Shown: piece after piece, positions 407 to 46,176 of the stretch
Numbering within the stretch: the stretch's first letter is position 1
Layout: every line of letters begins with the position of its first letter
Assembly: GCA_040509335.1 (NCBI GenBank)
Contig: JBEVLE010000636.1
Location: 3,164 to 67,163, forward strand
Source of the DNA: Longimicrobiaceae bacterium
Lineage (GTDB): Bacteria > Gemmatimonadota > Gemmatimonadetes > Longimicrobiales > Longimicrobiaceae
DNA length: 64,000 bases
Reading direction: 5' to 3'
The notes under the pieces: model-generated
The model's input: the letters and a program-made list of their open reading frames with translations, nothing else
What the model was told of the DNA's origin: nothing
The model's database searches: none
Translations under genes and position numbers: made by a program

Positions 407-2110
407 ATGCCGATTCCACGCGCCGCGTCCTCGCTCGTCGATCTCCTCCGGTTCCGCGCGGACGAGGACCCGGCCGGGTGCGCGTACACCTTTCTGCTGA
501 ACGGGGAGACCGAGGAGGGGCACGTCACGTACGGCGAGCTCGACCTGCGCGCCCGGGCCATCGCCGCCCGCCTCCAGGCGCTCGGCGCGCGCGGGGAGCG
601 CGCGCTCCTGCTCTACTCGCCGGGGCTGGAGTACGTCGCCGCCCTCCTCGGCTGCTTCTACGCCGGGGTCGTCGCGGTCCCCGCCTATCCCCCGCGCCGC
701 AACAAGCCGGATCCGCGCCTGCGGAGCATCGTCGCGGACTGCGCGCCCGCGCTGGCGCTCACCACCCGCGAGCTGCTGGGCGAGGCGGAGCGCCTGTGCG
801 CCGGCACCCCGGAGCTGGGCGGGCTCCGCTGGCTGGCCACGGAAGACGTCCCCGCACACGAGGCCGACGCGTGGACCGACCCGGAGGCGTCCGGCGACAC
901 GCTGGCCTTTCTCCAGTACACCTCGGGCTCCACGGCCGCGCCCAAGGGGGTGATGGTCGGCCACGGCAACCTGCTCCACAACTTCGCCGTCATCGAGGAG
1001 CTGTGCGGCTACACGCCGCGGACCCGCTCGGTCATCTGGCTGCCGCCGTACCACGACATGGGGCTGATCGGCGGCATCCTCCAGCCGCTGTTCACCGGGT
1101 ACTGGGCGGCGCTCTTTTCCCCCGTGGCCTTCATCCAGCGTCCGGCGCGCTGGCTGGAGGCCGTTTCGCGCTACCGGGCCACCAGCAGCGGCGGGCCCAA
1201 CTTCGCCTACGACCTGTGCGTCCGCGCGGTGCGCCCGGAAGAGCGGGCGGGGCTGGACCTGAGCCGGTGGGAGATCGCCTTCAACGGGGCCGAGCCCGTG
1301 CGCGACGAGACGCTGCGGGCGTTCGCGGAAGCGTTCGCGCCGTGCGGATTCCGCGAGCGGGCGTTCTACCCCTGCTACGGGCTGGCGGAGGCGACGCTGA
1401 TGGTGACCGGCAGCCGGCCGGCGGAGACGCCGGTGGTGCGTGCCGTGGACCCGAAGGCGCTGGGCGAGGGGAGGGTGCTCGGGGCGGAGCCGGAGGGGCG
1501 CTACCGCCTGGTGGGGAGCGGGCGGAGCGCTCCGTCGCAGCGGGTGCTCATCGTGGACCCGGCGACGCTGCGCGAGCGCCCCGCCGACCGCGTGGGGGAG
1601 GTGTGGGTGGCGGGCCCCAGCGTGGCGCGGGGCTACTGGGGGCGCGCCGAGGAAACCGCGGAGACCTTCGGCGCCTTGGAGGCCGGGACCGGCGAGGGGC
1701 CCTTCCTGCGCACCGGCGACCTGGGCTTCCTGGACGGCGGCGAGCTGTTCGTCACCGGGCGGCTCAAGGACCTGATCGTCATCCGCGGGCGCAACCACTA
1801 CCCGCAGGACGTCGAGCAGACGGCCATCCGCAGCCACCCGGGGCTGCGCGCGGGGCTCGGCGCCGCCTTCGGCGTGGAGGAGGGCGGGGAGGAGCGCCTG
1901 GTGGTGGTGCACGAGGTGTCGCGCCAGGCGGCGGCCGGGATGGACGTGGAGGAGGTCGGGGAGGCGATCCGGCGCGCGGTGGCCACGGAGCACGGGGTGC
2001 AGGTGCACGCGGTCGCCGTGGTGCGCCCCGGCGGCGTGCCCAGGACCAGCAGCGGCAAGGTGCAGCGCCGGGCGTGCCGGGCGCGGTTCCTGGCCGGGGA
2101 GCTCCCCCTG
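407..2110 (+). other. Fatty acyl-AMP ligase (FAAL) starter domain
   Basis: N-terminus [22 protein letters not shown]...[17 protein letters not shown]. Further motifs: [43 protein letters not shown]...[25 protein letters not shown] and [11 protein letters not shown]. This is the FAAL/FadD32-like pattern, not an amino-acid A domain. Confidence 0.85.

Positions 2111-46176: not shown

Follow-up and report, generated by a model that had tools for sequence, protein, structure and literature searches.

The 64,000-nt stretch of Longimicrobiaceae contig JBEVLE010000636.1 analyzed here (the window) contains four genes, CDS1 to CDS4, all on the + strand. The first three (positions 407-46176) encode a series of non-ribosomal peptide synthetase (NRPS) modules interrupted by one polyketide synthase (PKS) module, and they likely make up a single hybrid NRPS-PKS assembly line, collinear and self-contained, of an uncultured member of the Longimicrobiaceae from soil or biocrust. 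G+C content is 75-78% over the whole window, and a frame plot based on third-position GC (GC3), which reaches 93-99%, shows that coding on the + strand is continuous from around position 400 to position 64000. CDS1-3 amount to 15,229 open codons with no frameshift. Their intergenic gaps were measured as 40 nt (CDS1-CDS2) and 34 nt (CDS2-CDS3), in agreement with a preliminary description of this DNA, and the ATG at 407 from which CDS1 starts is also the called start of the homologous gene in a related locus, L161. The content of the three genes, as determined with Pfam and domain hidden Markov models (HMMs), is as follows.

407-16453, + strand: CDS1, 5348 aa, a fatty acyl-AMP ligase (FAAL) and an acyl carrier protein (ACP) followed by modules 1-4, with an N-methyltransferase (MT) in module 3
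16494-23057, + strand: CDS2, 2187 aa, modules 5 and 6, each composed of condensation (C), adenylation (A) and carrier (T) domains
23092-46176, + strand: CDS3, 7694 aa, modules 7-9, a KS-AT-T module, modules 10-12 and a thioesterase (TE)

The proteins were split at module boundaries and each piece was scanned against Pfam, while HMMs built from the window's own domains gave coordinates for every domain that were consistent with Pfam. The order of domains over CDS1-3, namely FAAL-ACP, nine C-A-T modules, KS-AT-T, three C-A-T modules and TE, is exactly the one that had been proposed in the preliminary description, and Pfam, motif checks and the HMMs all support it. A repeat finder detected 17 copies of the C domain in the window, with a period of ~3.15 kb that increases to 4.4 kb across the MT-containing modules and to 6.3 kb across the PKS module.

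The line begins with two domains that precede the first C domain.

407-2161, + strand: FAAL domain, AMP-binding followed by a DIP2-like C-terminal domain (AMP-dom_DIP2-like), by Pfam
2234-2419, + strand: ACP that would receive the acyl chain, PP-binding, CDS1 residues 610-671, with its Ser in GMDSL

The proposal that the line starts with a FAAL was confirmed by Pfam and by comparisons with solved structures, since its 15 best matches are without exception fatty acyl-AMP ligases (E values from 1e-183 to 1e-77), with amino-acid A domains at 1e-49. They include 7r7e (1e-183), the Legionella FAAL 3kxw, FadD32, FadD23, FadD28 and the E. coli FAAL. The C domain that follows, C1, is the most divergent of the set (47-52% identical to the other C domains) and is predicted, from its position in the line, to be an N-acylating condensation domain responsible for lipoinitiation. 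The nearest starter homologues outside Gemmatimonadota are FAAL-ACP-C proteins of ~1170-1250 aa, 50-57% identical to their counterpart in the window, which are found in Nostoc, Tolypothrix, Archangium, Corallococcus, Pyxidicoccus and various uncultured lineages.

The twelve NRPS modules and their A-domain codes are listed below.

2486-5578, + strand: module 1, C1-A-T, code DILQLGVIW, read as Gly
5639-8725, + strand: module 2, C-A-T, code DVAVNALVY, Ala-like, uncertain
8786-13150, + strand: module 3, C-A(MT)-T, code DVLWMGGVF, Val-like
11537-12763, + strand: methyltransferase inserted in the A domain of module 3, motif VLEIGCGVG
13217-16357, + strand: module 4, C-A-T, code DIFHFGLIV, not canonical
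within CDS2, + strand: module 5, C-A-T, code DVEELGVCT, not canonical
19830-22751, within CDS2, + strand: module 6, C-A-T, code DARGLGHVN, not canonical
23230-32658, within CDS3, + strand: modules 7, 8 and 9, three times C-A-T, codes DALLGGMVT (module 7, not canonical), DALVSGMIF (module 8, not canonical) and DILQLGLIW (module 9, read as Gly)
35863-45345, within CDS3, + strand: modules 10, 11 and 12, three times C-A-T, codes DVQFVAQVV (module 10, read as Pro), DVAVNALTY (module 11, Ala-like) and DIFHFGLIV (module 12, not canonical)

Catalytic motifs are intact throughout except for two conservative variants, both in module 6. Thus, HHxxxD is present in all 12 C domains (C6 reads HHVVSDE), the A8 motif and the A10 Lys in all 12 A domains, and GGHS in all 12 T domains. 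Pfam detected no second Condensation-family domain, and hence no epimerization (E) domain, in any of the 12 modules, and the His motif of dual E/C domains (a second HH[IL]xxxxGD) occurs in none of the 12 C domains. Because E domains and dual E/C motifs are both absent, the peptide is predicted to consist of L residues throughout; in comparisons with solved structures, members of each of the three C-domain groups ranked LCL-type structures far above a DCL or a starter-C domain.

The codes were extracted by aligning the binding pockets to that of GrsA-PheA, whose own code, DAWTIAAIC, was returned correctly. The procedure is validated by paralogous lines of Longimicrobiaceae, which yield textbook codes for Asn, Thr, Ser, Ala, Leu, Gln, Gly, Pro and beta-Ala. 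For the assignment of codes to substrates we relied on Stachelhaus 1999 and NRPSpredictor-type tables, taking the codes of modules 1 and 9 (Gly) and of module 10 (Pro) to be near-exact textbook ones. The Gly-type first and ninth residues and the N-methylated third residue of the preliminary description are thus upheld, the latter by the MT domain inside the A domain of module 3. Full-text literature searches with the code strings, textbook ones included, returned no match, and similarity of the A domains to structures in the PDB did not discriminate between substrates. The best match of A11, the C-A chain of McyA, scored 455 bits, vs 360-378 bits for A12 and A6, a weak hint that its substrate is Ala-like. 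The code shared by modules 4 and 12, DIFHFGLIV, presumably resembles that for hydroxyphenylglycine (Hpg). Since seven of the twelve codes, those of modules 4-8 and 12 among them, are non-canonical, the full peptide sequence is not predictable. The line contains recent internal duplications, with amino acid identities of 89% between C11 and C12, 87% between A4 and A12 and 77% between A2 and A11; C2 groups with C11 and C12 (71-74%), and the duplicated stretches correspond to 39097-45129 of the window vs 5639-8506 and 13217-16123.

The PKS module and the terminal domain of CDS3 comprise the following features.

32767-35802, + strand: PKS module, with ketoacyl-synt, Ketoacyl-synt_C, KAsynt_C_assoc, Acyl_transf_1 and PP-binding domains by Pfam, and no KR, DH or ER
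32767-34071, + strand: KS, with a Cys-His-His set in TACSSS, HGSGT and VGH
34297-35226, + strand: AT, with GHSLGE and HAFH
35587-35802, + strand: PKS carrier, with LGGHSL
45397-46173, + strand: type I thioesterase, GWSMGG ... GDH, Pfam Thioesterase at 9e-35, the single TE of the line

The HAFH motif in an AT domain is a signature of malonyl specificity, and the internal malonate-derived C2 unit that had been proposed for this line is therefore corroborated by the KS-AT-T organization together with this motif. The spacing between the AT and the carrier is only 360 nt, which leaves no room for a KR. In contrast, the paralogs L018 and L020-L024 have an insert of 1.75 kb between AT and T that carries a KR, as well as an extra Condensation-family domain, probably E, after the next module, and the line of the window has neither. 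As these sister lines carry KS-AT-KR-T, the absence of a KR appears to be a feature of the design. The terminal TE, also predicted beforehand, was confirmed by Pfam, by its catalytic motifs and by its best match among solved structures, which is the TE of the AB3403 terminal NRPS module (1.9e-37).

If the domains act in the order in which they are encoded, biosynthesis might proceed as follows. The FAAL would adenylate a free fatty acid and load it onto the adjacent ACP, after which C1 would move the acyl group onto the Gly of module 1. Modules 2-9 would then extend the chain by an Ala-like residue, a Val-like one that is N-methylated, five whose codes are non-canonical, and Gly. The KS would accept the lipo-nonapeptidyl chain from T9, and decarboxylative condensation with the malonate loaded by the AT would add a C2 unit. 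Because the PKS module is devoid of a KR, this unit would be kept as a β-ketone, yielding a Gly-derived 4-amino-3-oxobutanoyl moiety. C10 would couple the keto unit to Pro, and modules 11 and 12 would add an Ala-like residue and then a second residue of the module-4 type, with the TE finally setting the product free by hydrolysis or cyclization. The predicted product is an N-acylated 12-residue peptide with one inserted keto C2 unit, five to seven residues of which are unread; it may possess a biological activity.

Both inter-protein junctions have features that might allow the three proteins to associate. A pair of elements is found at each of them, with an acidic C-terminal tail on the upstream protein and an N-terminal LSxxxRxLLxxxLR head on the downstream one, which reads LSPEKRRLLLQDMLR in CDS2. 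The same head/tail pair recurs at gene junctions of orthologs and paralogs. In the paralogs L018, L020, L022 and L023, the head motif (e.g., LTPEQRALLLRKLRRQR) is present between T and C within one ORF, which is suggestive of a fusion between two proteins that had docking elements. Both the recurrence and the in-cis fusion are as expected of docking elements. The docking-like tails of the preliminary description find their support in this recurrence at junctions in relatives, but neither tails nor heads match a docking family of Pfam, even at E values up to 10. It is these short acidic tails and LSxxxRxLLxxxLR heads that would bring CDS1, CDS2 and CDS3 together. The order of the genes is not an artefact of assembly, since zero-mismatch contigs of an independent soil run, X1, span the CDS1|CDS2 junction (631 nt, 16100-16702) and the TE|CDS4 junction (723 nt, 45630-46352), and L001, the orthologous line described below, spans the CDS2|CDS3 junction, which is also conserved in L003.

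The conservation of the line was investigated by scanning the KS-AT-T module against one genome per species. Its closest relatives, at 91-93% amino acid identity, occur in only four metagenome-assembled genomes, all of Gemmatimonadota/Longimicrobiaceae: OY970303.1, which is a closed chromosome of 8.4 Mb, CAVTCB01, JBFMFL01 and DASVQR01. There are many KS-AT-T paralogs at 61-80% identity, and the next tier, at 57% or less, comes mainly from Acidobacteriota, Nitrospira, Chloroflexota, myxobacteria and cyanobacteria. An affiliation with actinomycetes, suggested by the GC content of 77%, was rejected, as all relatives above 60% identity belong to Gemmatimonadota/Longimicrobiaceae. Public sequencing runs that contain window sequence are soil and biocrust metagenomes, and a look-up of the exact sequence of CDS2 gave no record. 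L001, on OY970303.1, is collinear with 22506-45923 of the window at 92% nucleotide identity, and its modules and codes are those of the window, Gly-[KS-AT-T]-Pro included. CDS3 and its L001 ortholog share 90% amino acid identity, and their dN/dS ratio of 0.38 over 7594 aligned codons indicates purifying selection.

The boundaries of the line are marked by the following features.

48-406, + strand: non-coding leader or promoter region, without a codon-position GC signal
46193-46220, + strand: promoter-like site, TTGACG-16 nt-TAAAAT, in the 89-nt gap between the TE and CDS4
46266-64000, + strand, open at the window end: CDS4, more than 5911 aa, A-T, C-A(MT)-T, three times C-A-T, C-A...

On the upstream side, the leader is 82% identical to the region that precedes the FAAL gene of L161 (L161 9643-10000), with frame-breaking indels. 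The shared blocks include GGCATGCTCCC..GGTGCC and GCGGAGAACACCCGG. Conservation is much weaker in L162 and L163, and is thus not upheld beyond one relative. No sigma-70 consensus was found in the leader, and an Rfam scan of the window, leader included, gave no match. The genes located 5' of the FAAL gene in L161 code for a type I restriction system, HEAT-repeat proteins and a HupE protein, none of them NRPS, and those preceding the homologous FAAL genes of L162 and L163 are also unrelated to NRPS. A metagenome scan with the FAAL-ACP portion returned only relatives at 59% identity or less, and no orthologous upstream context was obtained in this way.

On the downstream side, CDS4 starts a second NRPS line. 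The claim of one initiation module and one release domain therefore stands for 407-46176 and fails beyond it, since CDS4 begins at 46266. This gene is missing from the program-made list of ORFs because it runs off the window end. An ORF at 46193-60151 was discarded as a gene, being in the wrong frame, Arg-rich and an artefact of the 77% GC. The promoter-like site between the TE and CDS4 matches the sigma-70 consensus at 10 of 12 positions, with none expected in shuffled sequences, which suggests that CDS4 may have its own promoter. The 723-nt X1 contig includes this site without a mismatch.

The proximity of CDS4 raises the issue of whether CDS1-3 are only half of a larger cluster that also comprises CDS4 and genes outside the window, with the peptide of the CDS4 line acting together with that of CDS1-3 or being joined to it after release. 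We consider this unlikely, yet among the alternatives it survives best; it bears on the scope of the system and not on its mechanism. CDS4 is on the same strand, 89 nt after the TE, and it reuses unusual codes of the CDS1-3 type, including DARGLGHVN (module N4, which keeps the A3 Lys, unlike module 6), DI[FL]H[FL]GLI[IV] and the Pro-like DVQFRADVA, which shares DVQF with module 10. Clustering of lines is also seen in the closed relative OY970303.1, with at least five same-strand KS-AT-T lines within ~310 kb, and in the ortholog L002, where another line start (FAAL-C) follows directly after a T domain. On the other hand, CDS3 ends in a TE without a docking tail, and CDS4 starts with an A domain, with no N-terminal C domain, docking head or acyl starter. 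In addition, the promoter-like site separates the two genes, and the start of CDS4 has no homologue above 64% identity among the proteins listed, none of which is longer than ~1900 aa. These features are in favor of CDS1-3 forming a line of their own.

Several observations weigh against the interpretation of CDS1-3 as a complete, active and collinear line. Regarding its start, C1 scores 330 bits with Txo2, which is LCL-type, vs 125 bits with the starter-C domain of SrfA-A and 81 bits with CDA-C1. The comparison with L001 covers the 3' half of the line (22506-45923), and the FAAL relatives at 80-87% identity include paralogs, so that the 5' synteny argument relies mainly on L161. Two of the orthologs are shorter than the line of the window. 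L002 (JBFMFL010000098.1, 9500-13229) ends after the carrier of module 11, without a TE, and 455 nt after the line end there is another FAAL-C gene, whose FAAL is 86% identical to that of the window. L028 (CAVTCB010000024.1) ends after module 10, also without a TE. There, the NRPS end is followed by a low-GC island (48-55%, L028 16692-21000) that encodes an 842-aa Mrr_cat-NACHT-pentapeptide-repeat protein and looks like an inserted defence-type gene replacing modules 11-12 and the TE. The ends of L002 and L028 may be genuine, through recombination and decay, in which case the 12-module form is not universal, or they may stem from misassembly of short reads. Furthermore, no public RNA run contains window sequence. 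Lastly, the two variants of module 6, HHVVSDE in place of HHxxxDG in C6 and TPRG in place of TPKG in the A3 motif, might lower its activity.

The module 6 variants are the starting point of a second alternative, in which the line is not collinear, module 6 being skipped or impaired, or in which the β-keto unit is altered in trans, so that something other than the 12-residue keto-peptide would be made. The window shows no tailoring genes, and enzymes acting in trans may exist. However, C6 retains its catalytic His and Asp, the replacement of the A3 Lys by Arg is conservative, the rest of the A-domain core is intact, and module N4 of CDS4 carries the same DARGLGHVN code as module 6. Departure from collinearity is thus improbable, more so than the involvement of CDS4 in a larger cluster. 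Finally, it is very improbable that the locus makes nothing, being either a relic (decaying or silent) or an artefact of the assembly of repeated modules, as the truncated orthologs, the lack of a public RNA run and module repeats of up to 87-89% amino acid identity, which are able to mislead assemblers, are set against the open reading of all CDS1-3 codons with their biased third positions, the dN/dS ratio relative to L001, and the confirmation of junctions and order by independent contigs and a long-read chromosome.

A self-contained collinear line in CDS1-3 thus remains the preferred interpretation, and it can be placed among the paralogous lines of the Longimicrobiaceae genomes OY970303.1, DASVQR01 and CAVTCB01. 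Like the line of the window, these have a FAAL start, an internal minimal KS-AT-T module, LSxxxRxLLxxxLR heads and recurrent non-canonical A-domain codes. In contrast, they have three modules before the KS vs nine in the window, their KS is flanked by Asn, Thr, Ala, Ser or Leu modules rather than by Gly and Pro, and they often harbor extra Condensation-family (E-like) domains or a KR; all are uncharacterized. In the OY970303.1 chromosome, at least five same-strand KS-AT-T NRPS lines (L012, L001, L013, L009 and L010) lie between 6.745 and 7.058 Mb, forming an unusually dense head-to-tail array, and two more are found elsewhere.

A broader proposal, to which we give slightly less than an even chance, is that the line of CDS1-3 is the first tractable member of a lineage-specific family of Gemmatimonadota lipopeptides that combine non-proteinogenic residues with a γ-amino-β-keto unit, and whose head-to-tail arrays of lines diversify by swaps of modules and line ends. 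The recurrent codes behind the putative non-proteinogenic residues are DIFHFGLIV, DVAVNALTY, DARGLGHVN and DVEELGVCT, and L002 and L028, orthologs that are truncated or re-joined, suggest the swapping of modules and line ends. If true, this family would represent a new class of scaffolds from a phylum without a known non-ribosomal peptide. Gemmatimonadota are abundant in soil and biocrust, have few cultured species and are chemically unexplored. As a complete and bounded line, CDS1-3 would be a realistic target for heterologous expression, and its product a candidate for peptide synthesis once the adenylation specificities are known. The Longimicrobiaceae lines that share the minimal KS-AT-T module would also provide a natural data set on the recombination of assembly lines.

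Regarding described systems, a literature search for NRPS products of Longimicrobiaceae or Gemmatimonadota found no non-ribosomal peptide, the only relevant report being the genome announcement of L. terrae, which lists 12 predicted clusters, among them several of the NRPS/T1PKS type, and reports no products. The preliminary description had recognized no known lipopeptide pathway in this string of modules, and indeed no characterized homologue was found, identity outside Longimicrobiaceae being 57% or less. Lines of the surfactin, CDA, daptomycin and Pseudomonas cyclic lipopeptide types have an N-terminal acyl group, a multimodular NRPS and TE release in common with that of the window. The line of the window does not fit any of these types, however. 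Their starter-C domains form a distinct clade, which C1 of the window resembles least in its structure scores; they also have E or dual E/C domains, of which the window line has none, they lack an internal PKS module, and their FAAL-ACP, if there is one, is a stand-alone unit. The Pseudomonas type, in particular, combines dual E/C domains with a tandem TE, whereas the line of the window has no dual E/C motif and one TE. Cyanobacterial and myxobacterial FAAL lines share the FAAL-ACP-C start. In those lines, it is usually a separate protein of ~1200 aa, whereas the starter of the window is fused to four further modules; none of these starter homologues could be connected in this analysis with a known product.

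The closest precedent is the nostopeptolide/minutumamide family of Nostoc (nos), N-acyl peptides whose lines have one internal cis-AT PKS module and keep the β-keto group, giving rise to 4-amino-3-oxo acids, e.g., Amopa, with TE release and shuffling of modules between related lines (PMC12184294). Common to that family and to the line of the window are an N-acyl NRPS peptide, a single PKS module without KR that leads, or in the window would lead, to a 4-amino-3-oxo acid, and TE release. The nos lines are cyanobacterial and make peptides of 7-9 residues, whereas the line of the window comes from Longimicrobiaceae, has modules for 12 residues and begins with a fused FAAL-ACP. The PKS module of the window is ~46-50% identical to its best cyanobacterial matches, and neither the nosE/F methylproline genes nor the nosG ABC transporter gene is present in the window or in the upstream flanks of its relatives. 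Judging from these comparisons, the resemblance to nostopeptolide biosynthesis is one of analogy only, and membership of that pathway is not supported. The biosynthetic logic of CDS1-3 is nevertheless within known hybrid NRPS-PKS chemistry, with a design that has its precedent in the nostopeptolide family.

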